From a virus (taxonomy: Duplodnaviria > Caudoviricetes), in IMG/VR virus record IMGVR_UViG_3300018492_000150, positions 1 through 64,000 of that record: DNA of 64,000 nt; one strand, 5' to 3'. Position 1 is the stretch's first letter; every line of letters starts with the position of its first letter. A model generated the notes under the pieces. The model ran no database searches, was not told the DNA's origin, and saw only the letters and a list, made by a program, of their open reading frames with translations. Below, piece by piece: positions 2,739 to 19,456 of the stretch. Position numbers and translations under genes: made by a program.

Positions 2739-3200
2739 ATGACAGAAGAACAACTTTATTATGAGATTTTAAATATGCTTGGATTAGAGATAATCCAAGG
2801 TAGAATATATGATAGTGACGCTGGTTCTTTTCTTATATATAATGGCGGTTTCTTATATACTAATGATTCTGTTATTGTACATAAGAAAGATACTAGATTT
2901 AACCCGCTATATAATAACAAACTTGCAGAGTATTTACTAAATGTCCTGTTTGAAAAAGAGAAACAGGATAATGGTCTATACGTTAAATTATTTGGCTCTA
3001 ATGAAGGGCAGAGATGTGGTCTTAGAACTATTTCTCTAAGTATTATAACTAATAAGATGAATATAACTACAGGGTATTTTTATAACTATTGCTTAGCTTG
3101 TATTCATGCTATGTATATTCTAGCAGATATGTTTGTGCCTAATTTATCTGCTTTTGATTATACGCCGGAGATGTTAACTACTACTAAGAAAGGAAAATAA
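2739..3200 (+). CDS. Hypothetical protein
   Basis: ORF with AAGGAG RBS. Confidence 0.7.
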   Translation: MTEEQLYYEILNMLGLEIIQGRIYDSDAGSFLIYNGGFLYTNDSVIVHKKDTRFNPLYNNKLAEYLLNVLFEKEKQDNGLYVKLFGSNEGQRCGLRTISLSIITNKMNITTGYFYNYCLACIHAMYILADMFVPNLSAFDYTPEMLTTTKKGK

Positions 3201-3204
3201 AATT

Positions 3205-4404
3205 ATGATTTTATTTAATCCTGGTCAAGAAGCAGTCATTCAGGCTGGAGTTCATCATATAAAACATTCGAGCAAACAAGTGTTTGAGTTTACTGGTGGA
3301 CCTGGAACTGGAAAGACTGAATGTATACATGAAATTGTTAGAAGATCTGGTATACCTTTAAACAGAATAGCACCTATGGCATTTATTGGTCAGGCTGCTA
3401 TAGTTATGAGATTAAGAGGTCTTCTAAATGCTAGGACGATACATTCATGGTTATATGAGTGTATCGAGGAAGATGTTTTAGATGAACACGGGTTTCCTGT
3501 TATGGATCCAGTGTTCAATAAACCTATGAAACGATATACATTTATACCTAGAGATTTAAATGATATCGATTTATTCATTATCGATGAGGGATATACTGTA
3601 CCTAGATGGATGAAGAAAGATATAGAATCTAGAGGCAAAAAAATTATCGTATGTGGAGATAGAAATCAATTACCTCCTGTAGAAGATGAACCTGCATATT
3701 TAGTGAATGATGATGTAATGATGCTTACTCAAGTAATGAGACAAAACGAGTGGTCATATATCGTTCATTTAGCTAATTTAGTATTACAGGGTATTGAGCC
3801 TGATTTAGGATTACATGGGAATGTTCTTGTTATAGAACAAGATGATCTTACTCCAGAAATGATTAAAAATTCTCAAGTTATCATTTGCGGTACAAATAAG
3901 ACTAGAGATTTTTATAACGATTACATACGCCACGAAATACTCCATAAAACTACAACATTACCTGGAGTTGGAGAACGAGTAATGTGTAGAAAAAATAACT
4001 GGAACATAGAAGTTGACGGAATTAATCTCACTAATGGATTAACAGGTACTGTAGCTAGGCCTGCTGATGTATATAATTTTGATGGTAAGACTTTTAATAT
4101 AGATTTTAGATCGGATCTATTAGGTCTATATTTTAACGATATTACTTGTAATTATCAATACTTTACAGCAAAAACTAGACAAGAGAAGGAGTTTATAAAA
4201 AACTCTAGATATGCTATAGGTGAAAAGTTTGAATATGCATATGCTAAAACAACTCATCTTTGTCAAGGTAGTCAGTATTATAACGGAATTTATATATCTG
4301 AATATCTACACAAGGATATTCAGAGACAGTTAGACTTTACAGCTGCTACAAGATTCATTAATCATATGATTTACGTTGTAAAGAAACGTAGACGATATTA
4401 TTAA
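3205..4404 (+). CDS. RecD/Dda-like SF1B helicase
   Basis: Walker A GGPGTGKT, ARTIHS, IIDEG, GDRNQLPPV, LTQVMRQ, YAKTTHLCQGSQY. Confidence 0.9.
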   Translation: MILFNPGQEAVIQAGVHHIKHSSKQVFEFTGGPGTGKTECIHEIVRRSGIPLNRIAPMAFIGQAAIVMRLRGLLNARTIHSWLYECIEEDVLDEHGFPVMDPVFNKPMKRYTFIPRDLNDIDLFIIDEGYTVPRWMKKDIESRGKKIIVCGDRNQLPPVEDEPAYLVNDDVMMLTQVMRQNEWSYIVHLANLVLQGIEPDLGLHGNVLVIEQDDLTPEMIKNSQVIICGTNKTRDFYNDYIRHEILHKTTTLPGVGERVMCRKNNWNIEVDGINLTNGLTGTVARPADVYNFDGKTFNIDFRSDLLGLYFNDITCNYQYFTAKTRQEKEFIKNSRYAIGEKFEYAYAKTTHLCQGSQYYNGIYISEYLHKDIQRQLDFTAATRFINHMIYVVKKRRRYY

Positions 4405-4470
4405 TATTCTCAATAATCGTATATTATACTATTGATAAAGAATATTAATATTTTAAGGAGGATTTTTAAA

Positions 4471-4920
4471 ATGGAAATGATTAAACCTTTTACAAGACCA
4501 GAAGAGAATATAGAGGTCAATATTGAAAAGAAAGATACTGTTCATAAAGAAGAACAGCCTAAGTTAATTAAACCTTTTACTAGAGTAGAAACTCCATCTA
4601 CTAAATTGTACTTAGTATTGAAGTATTATGATGAAAAAGATTTAGATGGAGAGGAGATTAGAGATTTTGAGTTCTTTGAAGGAACATCTCAAGATCTTTA
4701 TGATTATCTTAAAGCAGAGATTGAAGCTGATTCTGATACTCAGTTAGATGTAATGAGATCTAGAATTTTAGTAGACAGCCCAAAGATTTCAATATCCCAT
4801 AAATGCTCAGTATACATGTTTATGAAGGATTTAAGAAATAGAGGAGTAGTAATGGACGATACAAGTTTTGATATCGAAGACTACTTCTATTCATTTGAAA
4901 ACGAAGAGAAAGGAGAATAA
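4471..4920 (+). CDS. Acidic hypothetical protein with two N-terminal IKPFTR motifs
   Basis: AAGGAGG RBS; TATATTAT motif upstream. Confidence 0.75.
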   Translation: MEMIKPFTRPEENIEVNIEKKDTVHKEEQPKLIKPFTRVETPSTKLYLVLKYYDEKDLDGEEIRDFEFFEGTSQDLYDYLKAEIEADSDTQLDVMRSRILVDSPKISISHKCSVYMFMKDLRNRGVVMDDTSFDIEDYFYSFENEEKGE

Positions 4921-10477: not shown

Positions 10478-12859
10478 ATGAGTGAAGAAATTATTGAACG
10501 AAACTCGGTCGAACAATATAAAATGGATATGGTTCGATACAGTATAGAAACAAACAGGAGACGTGCGTTTCCTGATTATAAAGATGGACTTAAATTAGTT
10601 CATAGAAGAATTTTATATGCTATGGCATTTGATTTAGCATCATTTAAATCACTTGTCAAAACAGCCCAGGTTACTGGTAAAGTAATGGGAGAATATCATC
10701 CGCATGGTGATAGTAGTATTGATAATGCTATTGAGATTTTATGTAACTGGTGGTCTACTTATGTTCCTCTCATTGCATCTGAATCAAGTATGGGTTCAAT
10801 GCAGGGTGATGGTGCAGCCGCTTCACGTTATACTGAAGTAATGCTATCAGACTTTGCAAGAGAAGCTATATTTGCTGATATGAAAGAGAATCAGAATATA
10901 GTAGACTGGACGCCAACCTATACAAACAAAGATAAGGAACCAGTATATCTTCCAGTAGCAGTTCCATTGTTACTCATCAATGGCTGTCTCGGTATTGGTA
11001 CTGGTAAATCTACTTCAGTTCCAGCTCATAATATCAATGAAGTTATTGATGCTACATTGAATCTTATTGATAATCCAGATGCTCCAGTAGTGTTGATTCC
11101 AGATCAATGTATGCCGTGTGAAATCATTGAAGCTAATTGGAAACAGATATCTAACTCTGGAGTTGGTACTTTTAAAGTAAGAGGTATTATTGATATTGAA
11201 ATTAAAGACAAAGGTAAATCAAATGAACACTATGCTCTTGTAGTTAAGAGTAAACCTGATAGGGTTATTATTGATGACGGAAAAGAGAACGGTGTGCATT
11301 ATCAGATCAATGATCTTGTAGAGAAAGGTAAACTTCCTCAGATTACAGATCTATATGAGAACTCTCATGGTAAAGACCTTAGATATGAGATTCATCTTAA
11401 AAAAGGAGCAGATCCTAATTATGTTAGGGATTATCTATATAAAGCAACTTCACTAGAGACAACGCAGTCAGTAAACTTCGAAGTTCTTGATGATATTGAA
11501 ATGATGAGAATGTCTTATAAATCTTACCTCCAAGCATTCATCGAGCAGAGAAAGATTACTAAGTTTAGAAAATATTGTATCAAATTACAAGACGCAAGAA
11601 CTAAACTTCACGAGACAGAGATTTGTATTATGCTTATTAAGACAGGTAAGATCGATGATATCTATAAGAGAATAAGAAAATCTAAATCTAAAAATGATCC
11701 TGAACTTCTTGATTGGATTATGAAGTTTTTGAATATCACTGACTTGCAGGCCAAGTTTGTAATCAACTACCCTCTTAAGAATCTTACACCAGCTCACTTA
11801 GCTTCATATGAAGAACAGGCTGCTAAAATTAGAGAGGTTGAACAACAGTGTATGAAAATCATTCTTGATGAAAGATTGATCTTGCAAGAGATTAAAGATG
11901 ACTTGATTTACTTTAAGAACAAATATGGTTTTCCTAGAAAATCTAAAGTTCTTAGTCAATCTAAGATTTCCAATATCCCGAAAGGAACTTTCAATGTAGT
12001 TATTACTGAAAATAACTATATTAAGAAACTTCCTGTAAATGAATCTATTGGTTCTTATAGAGGAGATAATCCTGTGAGAGTTATTAGAATTGAAAATACG
12101 AGTGATCTTATTTTAGTCACTTCTCAGGGAAGAGGATTTAGAGTTCCTGTAAGTAAAATACCTATTACTGAAAGAAACTCTATTGGATTAGATGTACGAA
12201 TTATGATCAAAGGAATCTCATCAAATATTGTAGCGATGTTCGATGGTGATCTTGTATCTAAGTTATCTAATCTTAAACAGAAACATTATGCTGTATTCTG
12301 TACAGAACAGAATTATATAAAAAAGCTCGATTTAAAAGATATTCTTATTGCTACCCCTAGTGGTATCATCATGACTAAACTTAACTCAGGAGATCAAGTT
12401 AAGGATGTTATGATTGCGCCAAATACAAGGGATCTGGTGATCTATTCTAAGAAGAAAGCTTTGAGATGTAAGCTTACAGATATTCCTAATTATAAGAGAA
12501 ATACGTTAGGGGTATATGCAATGAATACTAAAGATCCTATTGATGGTATTAGTATCATTGATGAAAATGCAACCGATATTGTAGTTATTACAGAATCAGG
12601 AAAAATTAACAAGTTCGATATTGCAGGATTACCAATGTCTGAAAGATATAAAGCTGGTAATACGGTTATCAAATTAGGAAAGATGGATACAATTCATTCA
12701 TTATTTAGTGTAAATGATTCGAACGCTCTTCATATTCTTACACGGAATAATAGAATCGATATCCCTGTAAATGAAATTCAACGGACTTCATCTATATCTC
12801 CAGGATCTAAAAAGATACCGATGAAAGGTGATAATATTATAAAAATTACCGTTGAATAG
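10478..12859 (+). CDS. gyrA: Type IIA topoisomerase A subunit (GyrA/ParC-like)
   Basis: DGLKLVHRR, YHPHGDSS, catalytic AASRYTE, beta-pinwheel C-terminal repeats. Confidence 0.95.
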   Translation: MSEEIIERNSVEQYKMDMVRYSIETNRRRAFPDYKDGLKLVHRRILYAMAFDLASFKSLVKTAQVTGKVMGEYHPHGDSSIDNAIEILCNWWSTYVPLIASESSMGSMQGDGAAASRYTEVMLSDFAREAIFADMKENQNIVDWTPTYTNKDKEPVYLPVAVPLLLINGCLGIGTGKSTSVPAHNINEVIDATLNLIDNPDAPVVLIPDQCMPCEIIEANWKQISNSGVGTFKVRGIIDIEIKDKGKSNEHYALVVKSKPDRVIIDDGKENGVHYQINDLVEKGKLPQITDLYENSHGKDLRYEIHLKKGADPNYVRDYLYKATSLETTQSVNFEVLDDIEMMRMSYKSYLQAFIEQRKITKFRKYCIKLQDARTKLHETEICIMLIKTGKIDDIYKRIRKSKSKNDPELLDWIMKFLNITDLQAKFVINYPLKNLTPAHLASYEEQAAKIREVEQQCMKIILDERLILQEIKDDLIYFKNKYGFPRKSKVLSQSKISNIPKGTFNVVITENNYIKKLPVNESIGSYRGDNPVRVIRIENTSDLILVTSQGRGFRVPVSKIPITERNSIGLDVRIMIKGISSNIVAMFDGDLVSKLSNLKQKHYAVFCTEQNYIKKLDLKDILIATPSGIIMTKLNSGDQVKDVMIAPNTRDLVIYSKKKALRCKLTDIPNYKRNTLGVYAMNTKDPIDGISIIDENATDIVVITESGKINKFDIAGLPMSERYKAGNTVIKLGKMDTIHSLFSVNDSNALHILTRNNRIDIPVNEIQRTSSISPGSKKIPMKGDNIIKITVE

Positions 12860-12926
12860 TTTTATAAAAGTATATCTGGTAGCTTATTACAAGCTACCAG
12901 ACTTTTTATTAAAAGGAGGAATAATT

Positions 12927-13559
12927 ATGTTGTATATTCAAAAAGAACTTATAAAAGATATTGATGATTTATTAAAACTTGTAGACAAATACAAAGATGA
13001 ATTTGATAACAAGTTTATATTTATAAGATTGTCTGATGTGAAAAAATTTAATAATTCTATTTTTAGTCAGATATATGAGAAACTTTCATCAACTCCGCTA
13101 ATATACTTTTCTGAATTATATGGAAGCATATTATGTGATATGAGAAATCATATATTAAATAATTTTGCTGAATTTGTCACCGAGTACAGATTATATATGC
13201 ATTATATAATAGAATCTGTTACCTTTTATACAATAATGGCAAATACAGAACCAAGATATTTTTATTATAAATACATCAATGCATCTGCTAATAATGATAG
13301 TTTAAGTTTGGTAAAACAAAACAAACCATTATTTGGCGGTGATCCTGATCTGGGAATATTCTTTTTAGCATTTACCAAAATTATAAACAGTATATCTGAA
13401 AAAATTAAAAAAGTGTATAAGAATGTAAATAAATTTTCTGAAAATCTATCCAGAGATATATTGTCTTCATCTGTTAATTTATGTAATGATGAAGAACTAA
13501 ATGAATACTTTAATAGTATTTGTGAATTTGCTAAGAATTATAAGAAGGAGGAGAATTAA
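12927..13559 (+). CDS. Hypothetical protein
   Basis: AAGGAGG RBS. Confidence 0.7.
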   Translation: MLYIQKELIKDIDDLLKLVDKYKDEFDNKFIFIRLSDVKKFNNSIFSQIYEKLSSTPLIYFSELYGSILCDMRNHILNNFAEFVTEYRLYMHYIIESVTFYTIMANTEPRYFYYKYINASANNDSLSLVKQNKPLFGGDPDLGIFFLAFTKIINSISEKIKKVYKNVNKFSENLSRDILSSSVNLCNDEELNEYFNSICEFAKNYKKEEN

Positions 13560-13560
13560 T

Positions 13561-14274
13561 ATGTTATATTGTATCATTGGTAACAGTGGTGTAGGAAAAG
13601 ATACTATCTTAAATAAGTTATTAGCTGATAAAAAGCTAGGACTCAAGAAAGTAGTTACTTGTACTACTCGACCTATGAGGGATAACGAGGTTCAAGGAGG
13701 AAACTATCATTTTGTGAGCAAAGCGTTAGCTTTCAGGATAATTAAATCGAGAAAATATAAAGTAGCTAATGGAGATTATTGGTACTACTTTACTCCGGAT
13801 TTTTGCTTAACGAAACATGAAGTAGAAAATGATAATCTCATATGTGTTGCAGCACCGGAACAGTTTAGGGCATATTATAAAGCGTTTCCTGGCTACGTTG
13901 TTCCTATAATTATTAAAGTGCATGATAAAATTAGACTTATGAGATCTTTACAAAGAGAAAATAATCCTGATTGTAAAGAAATATGTAGAAGATTTCTTGC
14001 AGATATAGATAGTAACGAATGGCTATACAAAGATATTAACGATAATCTTATATTCTATAATGATAACGATGTAGATGATGTAGTTGAATCTATATCTGAA
14101 AGTATATATGAGTCAAATGCAATATCGCTGATATTTAAGGGAAATTTTATATATTATGATTGCATAAAAAATGGATCTGCATTTGCATCACTTATTAGCG
14201 GAATTGAGCCAGATACTTTAATAAAATATAGACATGAAGAATACGTAAAGATGGAGGAGAAAATAGATGAATAG
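13561..14274 (+). CDS. gmk: Guanylate kinase-like protein
   Basis: GNSGVGKDT, TTRPMRDNEVQGGNYHFVS. Confidence 0.85.
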   Translation: MLYCIIGNSGVGKDTILNKLLADKKLGLKKVVTCTTRPMRDNEVQGGNYHFVSKALAFRIIKSRKYKVANGDYWYYFTPDFCLTKHEVENDNLICVAAPEQFRAYYKAFPGYVVPIIIKVHDKIRLMRSLQRENNPDCKEICRRFLADIDSNEWLYKDINDNLIFYNDNDVDDVVESISESIYESNAISLIFKGNFIYYDCIKNGSAFASLISGIEPDTLIKYRHEEYVKMEEKIDE

Positions 14275-15277
14275 AGTATTAATAGTACATCATAATGACG
14301 ATGATGGGATTTGTGCAGCTGCAGCAGCAAGCTTTTATGGAACTAATGGTAGTAATGTGAGATTTAAAGCAGTAAACTATGATCAAAATTTACAAGAAAT
14401 TCTTGGTGATACTGTATATGATTTTGATACTATATTCTTTGTAGATTATAGTATTTCTAAAGAAGAGAATGCAAAGTTTGTGTTAGAATTATATAATCAT
14501 CCAAAGAAAGTAGTAAAATGGTTCGATCATCACAAATCATCTATAGATTTTATTGAATCTAACCCAGAATATCACGAATTAATTGATATTGGTGGGTATA
14601 GAATTATTGGTATTGCTGGATGTGCTTTAGTATGGTTATATTATAATAATGATTTAGTTAGTGATCAAACTTTGTTGTATGATACAATTGCACGGCACAA
14701 TTCAAATATTTCTGTATCTTATGATGATGCTAGATCACTTGTTAGATATGCACCTTCAATAATTCAATATGTACATCGATATGATATTTGGGACCCGTTT
14801 GATAAAGATATGACAAATCTCTTTCATTATGGATGGGATTGTAAAGATCCTACTGAATATTATACATACTTTCACAAAGATTATAAAGGTAGTATTATTA
14901 GAGATACTATAGAGAAAGGGAAAGCTATAAAATGTTACCTTGACAGTGAGAATGAAGAACATTGTAAAGATAATGGTTTTAATATAACAATACGATTTGA
15001 GAAAGATGGTATTATTAAAGATTATTCGTGTTTTGCACTCAACACCTATCATTGTACATCATTAGCATTTGGAGATATGATTAATATGTATGATATAGTA
15101 CTGCCATTCTTCTTTACAGGAAAGAAATGGAGACATTCTATGTACACTGTAAAAGAAGATATCGATGTGTCTGAAATATGCACATTACTTGGTGGTGGAG
15201 GTCATCCTAAAGCGGCAGGATATACGAGCGATCAATTGGACATTTATCCTGATACTATAATATCAGTATATAAATAA
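14267..15277 (+). CDS. DHH/DHHA1 phosphoesterase (nanoRNase-like)
   Basis: HHNDDDG, FVDYS, FDHH, GGGGHPKAAG. Confidence 0.9.
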   Translation: MNRVLIVHHNDDDGICAAAAASFYGTNGSNVRFKAVNYDQNLQEILGDTVYDFDTIFFVDYSISKEENAKFVLELYNHPKKVVKWFDHHKSSIDFIESNPEYHELIDIGGYRIIGIAGCALVWLYYNNDLVSDQTLLYDTIARHNSNISVSYDDARSLVRYAPSIIQYVHRYDIWDPFDKDMTNLFHYGWDCKDPTEYYTYFHKDYKGSIIRDTIEKGKAIKCYLDSENEEHCKDNGFNITIRFEKDGIIKDYSCFALNTYHCTSLAFGDMINMYDIVLPFFFTGKKWRHSMYTVKEDIDVSEICTLLGGGGHPKAAGYTSDQLDIYPDTIISVYK

Positions 15278-15345
15278 AAAATATAGGGATATGGTTTTAA
15301 ACCATATCCCGTTTCTTTTTTTGTAAATTTAGATATTTTTATTTA

Positions 15346-15353: not shown

Positions 15354-15464
15354 TATAGTGAACAAGTCATGATGACTTATCTACATACTCGCAGTCAAAT
15401 ATTAAAAAGAATGGAGGTGGTGATAAATATGATTTGATCGTATTATTAGTATTAAATTGTTTCA

Positions 15465-15736
15465 ATATATCATCCAAATGGAAAGACTCAGCTCTCTCGA
15501 TATATCGTAATAGATAAAAGATTTACGTATGGGAATATATCGTATGGAGGAAAAGATTCATTCAACTAGATATATCTCACAAGGATAAAGATTCAGGTCA
15601 TGAAATATATCATTGATAACAAAAGATTCAGATGAATGCGATATGTCAAAAAAAGGAAAAGATTCAGTTTCATCAATATATCATACCAATTAAAAGATTC
15701 TCATGTGGCTATATATCATCATATCGAAAAGAATCA
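15465..15736 (+). repeat. TIGR-like dual-spacer array 1 (8 units, 35-nt period)
   Basis: ATATATCA-like repeats at 15465, 15500, 15535, 15570, 15605, 15641, 15676 and 15711 alternate with AAAGATTCA-like repeats; intervening variable segments are 9 nt. Confidence 0.9.
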
Positions 15737-15771
15737 AAAATAATAAATAAAATACTCAGGAGGAAATAAAA

Positions 15772-17229
15772 ATGGAAAACAAGAAAATGTTATTTGAGGC
15801 AATGTTAGAAGCTGAGGAATTAAAGATCTCGGCTAAATTATCTAATGAGGAAATATTAGAACTTAGAGATGCAGCTAATGACCGAAAGATCGTTGGATTT
15901 TTGGTTGATCAATACTATCAGTCCCAAGAATATAGAAAAGCTGTGCAAAATCAAGCACGGTCATTATTGCAGGGTTATGATCAGTCAAGAGAAGATCATC
16001 CAGAGTTTATTAAAACTTTGCTTCTCAATGTAACAAAACAGGAAGCCAGAAACAAAGCAATGATGGATGTCATTACTGAAGAGATTCCTATTTGTCGGTG
16101 GATGAAATCTATTAAAGGTATTGGTCCTGTAATCTCTGCATATCTTTACAGTGCATTGGTAGTTAATGTATGGGAAGAAGTTGATCTTGATGATATCCCT
16201 GATTACGTTGACATTGCTGGTATAACTGAATGGACAAGAAAAACTCAGTATGAGATCAGTTCATATTGTAGATTTAGAGGAAAATTTTACAGAGCTAATC
16301 AAACAACTTATAGTATGCCTGGCACTATAAGATATGGTACTGATTTCTCCTCATATACTGGATTAAATGATAACAACAATCCATGGCTTGGAGAGAAAGG
16401 TGCTGCTGAAGTTATGAAAAAAGCATTAGCAAAACGAGAAGCTTTCTATGGTACTATCGATAGTACACTTGAAAGTTTCATTCCAGATGCTAAGATGAAG
16501 AAAGTTAAAACTAAAGTTAAGTCTTATATTAAGACTCTTGGTGTTTTTGATTTAGTAGATCTTGGAAAAATTATTCAGGATACTACTGGTATTGTAGCGG
16601 ATTTATCTGATCTATTAACACAGACTCAGGTTATATATTTAGAGGACTGGGCTAAATGGGTAGAGAATGACAAGAACGTTGATCAATATTTATACGACAC
16701 TGTCCATGAGATTACTGGAAGAAAGGTTGAACTTATTGAACAAGGTACAATTACTACCTGGATGTCAAAGAAAAAGAGGCCTAAAAAACCTACCACTGCA
16801 GAATTGAAGTCTTATCTTTCTAAACCACCATATAATAAAGACCTCAAGAAATTGATGTTTAATATTGGAGATTGTTTTATAAAGAACAGCTCTAGAGGAT
16901 CTTTATATGGAGAGATTTTCAGAAAGAGACTTGATGATGAAATGGTAAAAAATGAAGCTCTTGAATATGCAGATCAGGCTGCTAAAATTCTTGAAACAAA
17001 GGATATACAGGATTCTGCTACGAAAAAGACATTACAATCCGGAAAGTTGACGCAGGGTCATCTTGTAGCTAGAGCTAGAAGATATGCAGTAAAACTTTTT
17101 ATATCTCATGTGCACGAAGCAATGTGGTATGCAGAGTTTCATGAAGACAGTCCATCTCCATATGTGATTAGCCATATGGGGCATAAAGACTATGTGGCAC
17201 CAGAAGTTGATTATCATGAGTACCTCTAA
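15772..17229 (+). CDS. Nop/IS110-C-terminal-domain protein (Tas-like RNA-guided binding protein, no recognisable nuclease domain)
   Basis: Coiled coil LVDQYYQSQEYRKAVQNQ, HhH WMKSIKGIGPVISAYL, FSSYTGL, PYNKDLKKLMF...LYGEIFRKR, HLVARARRYAVKLFISH; no DEDD/RuvC N-terminus; flanked by arrays. Confidence 0.75.
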   Translation: MENKKMLFEAMLEAEELKISAKLSNEEILELRDAANDRKIVGFLVDQYYQSQEYRKAVQNQARSLLQGYDQSREDHPEFIKTLLLNVTKQEARNKAMMDVITEEIPICRWMKSIKGIGPVISAYLYSALVVNVWEEVDLDDIPDYVDIAGITEWTRKTQYEISSYCRFRGKFYRANQTTYSMPGTIRYGTDFSSYTGLNDNNNPWLGEKGAAEVMKKALAKREAFYGTIDSTLESFIPDAKMKKVKTKVKSYIKTLGVFDLVDLGKIIQDTTGIVADLSDLLTQTQVIYLEDWAKWVENDKNVDQYLYDTVHEITGRKVELIEQGTITTWMSKKKRPKKPTTAELKSYLSKPPYNKDLKKLMFNIGDCFIKNSSRGSLYGEIFRKRLDDEMVKNEALEYADQAAKILETKDIQDSATKKTLQSGKLTQGHLVARARRYAVKLFISHVHEAMWYAEFHEDSPSPYVISHMGHKDYVAPEVDYHEYL

Positions 17230-17260
17230 TTAGAGGTACTCTTTTGATTAAATTGAAATG

Positions 17261-17639
17261 ATATAGCAAAGAACCTAAAAGATTCAAGAACATAAACATA
17301 TCAGTTGAAAAAAAAATATTCATCAATCTAAATATATCAACCAAAGAAAAAGATTCACTTCTTTTAATATATCATGCATTGAAAAAGATTTAAAATTTGT
17401 AATATATCGTATTACAAAAAAGATTCACCACTCATAATATATCAAAGAATTTAAAAGATTCATTAGGCGTAATAAATCATATAATAGAAAAGATCCAATG
17501 TAAGTGTATATATCATACTACAAAAGAGATTGATGGAAATTAATATATCTAGAAAGGAAAAAGATTCGAGAAGTTTAATAATTTCTATTGAGGAAAAAGA
17601 TTCAGTTTAGTCAATATGTCACGATGGGTAAAAGAATTA
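17261..17639 (+). repeat. TIGR-like dual-spacer array 2 (11 units)
   Basis: First repeat at 17261, 17296, 17332, 17367, 17402, 17437, 17472, 17508, 17543, 17578 and 17614, alternating with AAAGATTCA. Confidence 0.9.
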
Positions 17640-17676
17640 ATAGAAAGAGATTAATTTCTCTTTCTATTTATTTTTT
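17639..17676 (+). terminator. Terminator closing array 2
   Basis: AATAGAAAGAGA...TCTCTTTCTATT plus T-tract. Confidence 0.8.
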
Positions 17677-17732: not shown

Positions 17733-18902
17733 ATGAAAGTTACTAGAGTAGCAGTAAATAAAATATATCCTATTGTAGAAAAAAGCTTACAAAAAAATAC
17801 ACCGGCATATAAGAAAAATGTGCAAGAGTTTATTAAAGATAGATCTAAAGATTTATATGATATTGTTCCAGTAAGAAGAATACCATTTGGATCTGAAGAT
17901 ATAGATAGTTTCTTCAAAGCTATGAAAATAGATAAAAATGAGATCACACAATGTTTGAGCGAAACGTACTACTGGAACATGAACTTTAATCCTAGAGCAG
18001 CTAAGGACGAATTTACAATGACTATGATGATGGTAATACGGTACTTTCTGCTTAAGAATAAACAAACTGATGCAGAAATATCTACTATTTATTTAGCATT
18101 TTCTGGAAAATTTTATCCTTCTATTCATTCACAGAAATTTAAAATTCCGCCAGAGAAGTACAGACATATTATGGAATATGTATTAAATAATGTGCTTACT
18201 CAGAAGTATGACCTTAAAAGAGAAGGTTCTGTATTTGGAGCTGTTAGATCTATTTGCAGAACATGGTTAAGAACTTACACTCCTAAATTTAAAAATCCAG
18301 ATGATGAAGATGTTGCTGATATGATACAGCAGCTTCATGGTAGAATTAAATCATTCTTAGGGAATATAGCTGCAGCTTATTATGATACTTATGAAAAGAG
18401 AGATTCATATTTTGCTTATGCATCAGATTCTAACGATCAAGATTCTTTCAGAATTGCTGATAATGATTCTTTATTAGCAGAAAGATGTGTAGAAAATGCT
18501 ATGAATTGGATCACAACAAAACAAGTGGACTATAAATTATGTAAATGGGCTTCAGATAAGAATGTAAAGGTGGATGAAATAAAATCTATTATAGAATCAA
18601 TACAGGAAGATAGTGATAATTTACTTCTTATACGAGAGATGATGCAATTGATAATTGCTGATTATTTCTCTATATCTAATAATAAAGATGTCACGTCATA
18701 TGAGTTTATTAACAAATCAATTGTCGCTAAACCAAATAGTAAAAATAAGTATGTAATTCGCCAGAAAGAAATTATAGAATATTTTCTTGATGAGAATTCT
18801 CCTGCTTATAGAAAGAGAAAAAGTAGACCTGACACAAAGTCATCTTATTATAAATCTATCTTGACATATTATGTTTTGGTAATAAATGAATCTAATAAAT
18901 AA
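17733..18902 (+). CDS. Hypothetical protein (389 aa) between arrays 2 and 3
   Basis: Long ORF with late-type promoter; no motif recognised. Confidence 0.8.
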   Translation: MKVTRVAVNKIYPIVEKSLQKNTPAYKKNVQEFIKDRSKDLYDIVPVRRIPFGSEDIDSFFKAMKIDKNEITQCLSETYYWNMNFNPRAAKDEFTMTMMMVIRYFLLKNKQTDAEISTIYLAFSGKFYPSIHSQKFKIPPEKYRHIMEYVLNNVLTQKYDLKREGSVFGAVRSICRTWLRTYTPKFKNPDDEDVADMIQQLHGRIKSFLGNIAAAYYDTYEKRDSYFAYASDSNDQDSFRIADNDSLLAERCVENAMNWITTKQVDYKLCKWASDKNVKVDEIKSIIESIQEDSDNLLLIREMMQLIIADYFSISNNKDVTSYEFINKSIVAKPNSKNKYVIRQKEIIEYFLDENSPAYRKRKSRPDTKSSYYKSILTYYVLVINESNK

Positions 18903-18940
18903 TATGATTATATATTATTAAGATGATTATAAGAAAGGAG

Positions 18941-19456
18941 ATATATCATAAGCCATAAAAGATTCATTACCATGGAATATATCAGGTTATGCAAAAGATT
19001 TATCCGCAATAATATGTAAAGAGGCATTAAGAGATTCAAAAACATAAATATATTGGCAGAAAAAGATTCAGTAAAGTCAAATATATCATTACGTATAAAA
19101 GATTCACAACCACAATATATCAGGAGGCATAAAGATTTATACGCTGTAATATATCATTAGAAATAAAAGAATCAAAGTATCCTATATATCATCAGTATTG
19201 AGTGATTCTTGTGTACTTATGTGTCTTAAAGAAATGAAGATTCATTATATAAGCAAATATATCAAGCGGATAAAGAGATTCAACTTCTCAAATATTTCAA
19301 GTTATGCAAAAGATTCATTTCTGAGAATATATCATTATATATAAAAGATTCTTGATTCATATTATATCACAAAACAAAAAAGATTCTAGCGAGATAATAT
19401 TTCATTAAATTTTAAAGATTCAATAGACTCAAGATGTCAAGTAGATGAAAAGTTAA
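18941..19456 (+). repeat. TIGR-like dual-spacer array 3 (about 15 units, more degenerate)
   Basis: Same alternating ATATATCA / AAAGATTCA repeats with mostly 9-nt spacers; TATATTAT at 18911 upstream. Confidence 0.9.

Follow-up and report, generated by a model that had tools for sequence, protein, structure and literature searches.

A nuclease-free TIGR-Tas protein of a human-gut jumbo phage with two insertions in its Nop core

A jumbo phage of the human gut carries a gene, tasA, for a TIGR-associated protein (TasA) that lacks a nuclease and whose core is enlarged at two sites. The larger insertion is, in our structural models, an expanded wedge: an eight-helix domain without a known fold relative, grown out of the strand-separating loop. 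The smaller one is probably a recent, lineage-specific small beta module resembling CBM5/12 domains, judging by its sequence, and lies at a new site. We consider it likely that, taken together, the locus encodes a dual-repeat TasA that is a nuclease-free guided binder or repressor, and that the insertions (an oversized wedge and a CTD1 module) are selected accessory modules, neither of them a nuclease.

The TIGR-Tas family, including the nuclease-free RNA-guided DNA binder TasA, has been known since 2025 (Faure et al. 2025, PMC12045711), and its proteins draw interest as very small programmable DNA binders. What is new here is that a dual-repeat TasA can carry a domain of 150–280 aa, predicted to be folded, at the strand-separating wedge with its guide arrays unchanged, a pattern found in a clade of 60 or more sampled lineages. 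The helix-hairpin-helix of CTD1 is a second site that can apparently take a folded module. Both would be natural sites for inserting domains without destroying the scaffold, which would be useful in engineering fusions.

A TasA between guide arrays

The original prediction described a TasA-like protein of 485 aa with no RuvC/DEDD or HNH motif ahead of its coiled coil, and this description held: only ~37 residues precede the coiled coil, the core is a Nop core, and TIGR arrays lie on both sides of the gene (Table 1). Within the window, by which we mean the whole 64,000-nucleotide stretch of DNA analysed, tasA is preceded by a ribosome-binding site, AGGAGG, at 15758–15763. The protein scored 106.6 bits against NCBIfam model NF052498 (“TIGR-Tas system RNA-guided endonuclease”), for which the curated cut-off is 100, and profile alignment to TaTasR gave an E-value of 1e-17. 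Its C-terminus matched PHROG 4285, labelled “transposase,” and a Pfam scan of the whole protein returned nothing significant.

An AlphaFold2 model of TasA, built with 79 homologues as input, had a mean pLDDT of 88.5. It matched SpTasH (PDB 9w03/9vzx) with a Z-score of 18.2 over 228 aligned residues and TaTasR (PDB 9mty) with a Z-score of 17.0 and an rmsd of 2.1, compared with Z-scores of ~12 for ISCro4/IS621 and 7.4 for Nop5; after the Tas and IS110 matches, generic coiled-coil matches dominated the list. The structural alignments began at residue 33–38 of the model, as against residues 64–66 of TasH and residue 111 of TaTasR. Thus, the HNH and RuvC domains of TasH and TasR have no counterpart here, which makes the protein a TasA. 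Neither the ORF nor its insertions matched a nuclease family in Pfam or NCBIfam. The PHROG family “HNH endonuclease” gave a weak match (E 0.055) to residues 118–176; there are 0 histidines in this stretch, which rules out an HNH site within it.

From P352 to the C-terminus there are ~134–140 aa in most aligned relatives. Near the C-terminus, H471 was invariant, and Y464 occurred in no fewer than 90% of the 79 sequences. The processing residues of SpTasH, Y289 and H296, have a spacing of 7 (SpTasH paper), equal to that of Y464 and H471. From these sequences we infer that the two pairs are equivalent and that the guide-processing site has been kept.

Table 1. Features of the tasA locus (positions in the window)
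Feature	Position	Strand	Description
Terminator-like hairpin ending the upstream DHH phosphoesterase gene	15286–15310	+	11-pair stem, then T run
TIGR array 1	15446–15736	+	~8 units of 35–36 nt
tasA	15772–17229	+	485 aa; ATG start
Coiled-coil helices (residues 38–105), Tas dimerisation element	15883–16086	+	Helices 38–66 and 78–103 in the model; aligned to the TasH/TasR coiled coil
CTD1 insertion (insertion 1; residues 129–185)	16156–16326	+	52-aa insert in the helix-hairpin-helix turn of CTD1
Wedge-position domain (site 2; residues 196–352)	16357–16827	+	GLNDNNNPWLG loop, then predicted eight-helix domain
Part specific to the long-wedge clade (~residues 222–305)	16435–16686	+	
Helical segment of ~35 aa at the published “insertion 2” position (TaTasR V267–S269)	16954–17055	+	Common to the whole subfamily
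Y464...H471	17161–17184	+	Candidate metal-independent tigRNA-processing dyad; 7-residue spacing
Hairpin overlapping the tasA stop codon, just before array 2	17218–17241	+	10-pair stem, then TTTT
TIGR array 2	17243–17631	+	~11 units
Terminator hairpin after array 2	17639–17668	+	
orf389 (PHROG 2921)	17733–18902	+	Conserved jumbo-phage core gene between arrays 2 and 3
TIGR array 3, downstream of orf389	18923–19454	+	~14 units, some degenerate (32–38 nt)
Terminator hairpin after array 3	19454–19489	+	Sequence near-identical to the array 2 terminator

Three dual-repeat TIGR arrays flank tasA. Their units of 35–36 nt consist of an edge repeat AAAGATTCA, ~9 variable nt, a loop repeat ATATATC and ~9 more variable nt, an architecture described by Faure et al. 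2025 (PMC12045711); no Rfam family matched the arrays. The TIGR-tasA unit begins downstream of the terminator-like hairpin behind the DHH phosphoesterase gene, and the hairpin at the tasA stop codon may be an attenuator, or a terminator parting tasA from array 2. The terminators of arrays 2 and 3 share the sequence AATAGAAAGAGA...TCTCTTTCTATT almost exactly, and orf389 is sandwiched between these two arrays.

Guide content turns over fast. Phages with TasA proteins 94–99% identical have only part of their units in common, and some common units occupy different arrays in different phages (the window compared with L001–L003 and L081–L084). The phage L081, whose TasA is 99% identical, has 0 array 2 units in common with the window, and the array 2 units at 17419–17525 are found in array 3 of L002 and L083. 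The tasA-proximal unit at 15693 (CATGTGGCT / ATCATATCG) alone is kept in every relative from which this stretch was recovered, including the one whose protein is 78% identical. Two guides are unusual. In the unit at 17384–17418, spacer A, extended into the beginning of the loop repeat, is the reverse complement of spacer B (TTTGTAAT...ATTACAAA), and the two spacers of the unit at 15517–15551 both contain almost the same 7-mer (GTATGG-). Guides were also searched against the 113.6-kb contig for self-targets in the adjacent 9+9 geometry, in both orders and with shuffles as control. This revealed no perfect target; there were 3 matches with two mismatches against ~0.2 in shuffles, which is not compelling and which we did not take as targets, and the counts at three mismatches equalled those of the shuffles.

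The window DNA is AT-rich (~31% GC). Distant homologues of orf389, at 20–27% identity, are found in jumbo phages of Bacillus (BpSp), Listeria (LPJP1), Staphylococcus (Machias, PB50, SA1) and Yersinia (phiR1-37, whose homologue g205 is annotated “structural”), which places the source phage among the jumbo phages. The gene order DHH phosphoesterase–tasA–orf389 is kept throughout the long-wedge clade described below. As a Tas accessory gene, orf389 was rejected: it is far better conserved, with 79% identity to the L004 lineage as compared with 35% for TasA, and a tblastn search with the window TasA found no match in the catalogued phage collection that holds the jumbo-phage homologues of orf389. 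We therefore read orf389 as a core phage gene and not as a Tas partner. Nothing Tas-specific was found among the neighbours; the DHH gene and orf389, both conserved, are syntenic genes of the jumbo-phage core. Genes of nucleotide and DNA metabolism surround the locus (10478–15277 and 20918–22195), and the neighbourhood includes a GyrA/topoisomerase-like protein of 793 aa, a guanylate-kinase-like protein, a DHH/DHHA1 phosphoesterase and, by the appearance of its sequence, an anaerobic ribonucleotide reductase.

Two insertions in the Nop core

The insertions were mapped by profile alignment to TaTasR together with the segment definitions of Xu et al. 2026 (preprint, 10.64898/2026.09.09.750476). 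There, the wedge of TaTasR is G210–K230 (21 aa), insertion 1 is Q247–T249 and insertion 2 is V267–S269, and the wedge is already named as a variable site. In the window TasA, 153 aa separate YTGL (195–198) from PPYN (352–355); profile alignment gives an interval of 19 aa in TaTasR and of 17 aa in SpTasH. The insertion of about 150 aa originally predicted between these motifs is therefore correct relative to TasR and IS110 proteins. However, the wedge is ~40 aa in the published sequence of FpTasA and ~80–94 aa in the nearest shorter sisters, and relative to the closest sisters ~73 of the 153 aa are extra.

The family is large and comprises 1640 clusters at 50% identity (E up to 0.001). In an alignment of 79 relatives, including the window TasA and P0002, the wedge-internal segment G207–R317 was 36 aa in 13 sisters (proteins of 362–435 aa) and 101–156 aa in the 66 longer proteins. 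The relatives stem from human-gut metagenomes and from viral contigs of 137–274 kb. Across the loci that we fetched, the whole wedge region ranged from 94 aa (L096) up to 279 aa (L008); the latter, the largest seen here, belongs to a protein of 584 aa (IMGVR_UViG_3300031555_004524, ORF 2815–4569). A maximum-likelihood tree placed the window TasA within a long-wedge clade of 60 rows (SH-aLRT 100), and a few further long-wedge lineages fell outside this clade with weak support. Within a large clade the wedge grew stepwise, from ~21 to 40, to 80 and to 150–280 aa. This expansion does not track guide architecture, because the arrays of the sister L096, with its wedge of 80–94 aa, have edge and loop repeats and a 35-nt period identical to those of the window arrays. 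The L008 arrays have other repeats (ATATAGT / AAATGAAT) and a 36-nt period. We also looked within the tasA ORF for hidden TIGR units as an origin of the insertions, and found none at the DNA level.

When folded alone, using 15 sequences from the fetched loci, the wedge domain was predicted to form eight helices (pLDDT 89). No structural relative was found among 48,161 PDB representatives (best Z 4.6), a structure search of BFVD gave nothing below E 0.6, a sequence profile search gave no match, and a search of the ESM Atlas with the wedge part returned only scores of 0.82 or below. Nor did a nuclease fold appear among the structural matches of the whole model or of the isolated domain, in agreement with the original view of the insertions as something other than a standard nuclease. 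The sole conserved motifs of the wedge are GLNDNNNPWLG at its start and R317...L349-KPPYN at its end, both of which are also present in the shorter sisters; conservation is low in between. The part specific to the clade carries a net negative charge (median −4 in 66 sequences), whereas the remainder of the protein is basic (median +9). Such a composition would fit contact with proteins, or strand mimicry, no less well than the binding of nucleic acids.

The smaller insertion, predicted as about 60 aa following the GIGP hairpin, is real and measures 52 aa: from GIGP119 to S194 there are 74 aa in the window TasA and P0002 and 21–22 aa in the 77 other aligned relatives. It contains WTRKTQYEISSYCRFRGKFYRANQTT, the segment quoted in the original prediction, and is restricted to proteins at least 78% identical to the window TasA. 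Its position, the second helix-hairpin-helix turn of CTD1, is not among the insertion sites named by Xu et al. 2026. It was modelled at low confidence (pLDDT 58–83), with a beta-hairpin at residues 165–175.

The loose likeness to CBM5/12 domains that had been remarked on is echoed by consistent matches below threshold. In a Pfam scan of this insertion alone, the sole match was CBM_5_12 (PF02839), at 12.7 bits and E 0.13 against a gathering threshold of 26.2 bits. CBM_5_12 was matched by 6 of 7 variants, which represent ~3 distinct sequences, with a best E-value of 0.0013 and all below the gathering score; CBM_5_12_2 was matched by four of the seven, again below the family threshold. A profile of the insertion searched against the PDB gave, likewise below threshold, a chitin-binding domain first (2rts_A, E 0.0099) and a cellulose-binding domain third (1aiw_A, E 0.18). 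The insertion carries a CBM5/12-like sequence pattern, W/Y...Y...[VC]x[FY]xGKxYxA...P. Carbohydrate binding is nevertheless unlikely, since the module is embedded in a nucleic-acid-binding protein. The insertion has no paralogue elsewhere on the contig, and in a set of 5.8 billion proteins it occurred in no other protein family, only in close TasA relatives; a search of the ESM Atlas gave nothing usable.

We compared the window gene with the gene of L084, whose product is 78% identical. With dS near saturation, dN/dS was 0.23 for the CTD1 insertion, 0.20 for the clade-specific wedge and 0.06–0.09 for the core. Both insertions are under purifying selection, and both are less tightly constrained than the core.

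Proposed mechanism and alternatives

Dimerisation, guide processing, DNA binding, repression and a role for the insertions can be proposed for the window TasA. By homology, TasA would dimerise through its coiled coil. It would then cut the transcripts of the three arrays into tigRNAs of 35–36 nt, probably via Y464/H471, and each guide would use its two spacers of ~9 nt to base-pair with both strands of its DNA target. As it has no nuclease, TasA would bind without cutting and act as a roadblock or repressor; repression by MbTasA, likewise nuclease-free, is described in a preprint (10.64898/2026.09.09.750476). That guides turn over so quickly between near-identical phages suggests that TasA serves in conflict with other mobile elements or with the host. 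The insertions, which we infer to be accessory modules on this RNA-guided binder or repressor, may stabilise or modulate the RNP–DNA complex, for example by capping displaced strands or by closing the DNA groove that the nuclease domain helps to close in TasH and TasR.

The original prediction went further and suggested that the insertions may be a new effector or partner-docking module on a programmable binder. The TasA-like identity stands; the large insertion lies at the known variable wedge site, and no Tas-specific neighbour was found. We consider it unlikely that the insertions are a platform for docking partners or recruiting effectors, with which TasA would direct a factor from host or phage, or an enzyme encoded by a separate gene, to the DNA site that its guide specifies. 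Such a function would be consistent with the acidic clade-specific wedge segment, unlike a typical nucleic-acid binder, with a wedge fold that lacks a known relative, with purifying selection on both insertions and with the generic binding role of CBM5/12-like modules; in SpTasH, moreover, the HNH domain docks on a surface made up of the wedge loop and a beta-hairpin (SpTasH paper). However, no Tas-specific neighbour was found beside the syntenic core genes, and the wedge varies continuously in length (149–279 aa) with a poorly conserved middle, unlike a fixed interface. Less probable still is the specific form of this proposal, in which the eight-helix wedge and the CBM5/12-like module together would make up a recruitment surface and TasA would be the targeting subunit of a multi-protein effector whose enzyme is encoded elsewhere. 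If true, TIGR-Tas systems would include a functional class that has so far gone undescribed.

It is improbable that the insertions are instead tolerated loop expansions without specific function, decorating permissive surface sites. No other site of the Nop core varies as much in length as the wedge, the central part of the domain shows little conservation, and the CTD1 insertion is limited to one shallow lineage. Against this, dN/dS is ~0.2 across both insertions (dS near-saturated), which points to constraint, and the wedge domain is predicted to be compact with confidence and is kept throughout the clade of 60 sampled lineages.

That this TasA is the decayed remnant of an IS110 transposase, or that one of its insertions conceals a nuclease or recombinase, is scarcely credible despite the “transposase” label of PHROG 4285, the fold in common with the C-terminal domains of IS621 and ISCro4 and the weak “HNH endonuclease” match: IS110 model NF033542 scored 12 bits against a cut-off of 140, the ~37 aa ahead of the coiled coil leave no DEDD domain, the conserved loop after YTGL (NDNNNPWLG) is without Ser where IS621 has its serine loop, the stretch with the HNH match has no histidine, neither model matches a nuclease fold, and the gene sits between guide arrays in a family that forms over 1600 clusters at 50% identity and is under purifying selection. 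This outcome accords with the original assignment to the Tas proteins.

Comparison with known systems

The window TasA shares with the bridge-RNA recombinases of the IS110/IS621 group a coiled coil and the fold of the C-terminal RNA-binding domain (Z ~12). In contrast to these enzymes, it lacks both of the family's features, the N-terminal DEDD/RuvC-like domain and the catalytic serine after the AGL motif, and it has guide arrays in place of transposon ends. With CBM5/12 domains (PF02839; 2rts, 1aiw), the CTD1 insertion has in common its sequence pattern and the predicted beta-hairpin at 165–175; unlike them, it scores below the family threshold throughout and forms part of a nucleic-acid-binding protein.

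Among Tas proteins with nucleases, TaTasR and SpTasH superpose on the window TasA in their Nop core, and the GIGP helix-hairpin-helix, the PPYN-type helix and the C-terminal GH-DY loop are conserved. Both of these proteins carry a nuclease domain (RuvC or HNH) at the N-terminus and have 17–21 aa in the wedge loop, whereas the window TasA has no nuclease and ~230 extra residues inside its Nop core.

Expansion of the Nop core at named sites, the wedge among them, is shared with the Tas proteins that bind stem-loop guides, in which clade-specific expansions at three segments (wedge, insertion 1 and insertion 2) go together with extended tigRNA stems, while dual-repeat Tas proteins are described as compact (Xu et al. 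2026, preprint, 10.64898/2026.09.09.750476). The window TasA differs in that its arrays are ordinary dual-repeat arrays, its expansion does not follow guide architecture, and its CTD1 site is not named there.

FpTasA of Flavonifractor plautii (PMC12045711) is likewise a nuclease-free Nop-domain protein with a coiled coil and a C-terminal H/Y loop, encoded beside dual-repeat arrays with units of ~36 nt in a mobile-element or gut context. As originally proposed, the insertions set the window protein apart from this described TasA. FpTasA is ~290 aa long, with a wedge of ~40 aa and a CTD1 turn of 22 aa; the window TasA, in contrast, has a wedge-position domain of 153 aa, a CTD1 insert of 52 aa and three arrays.
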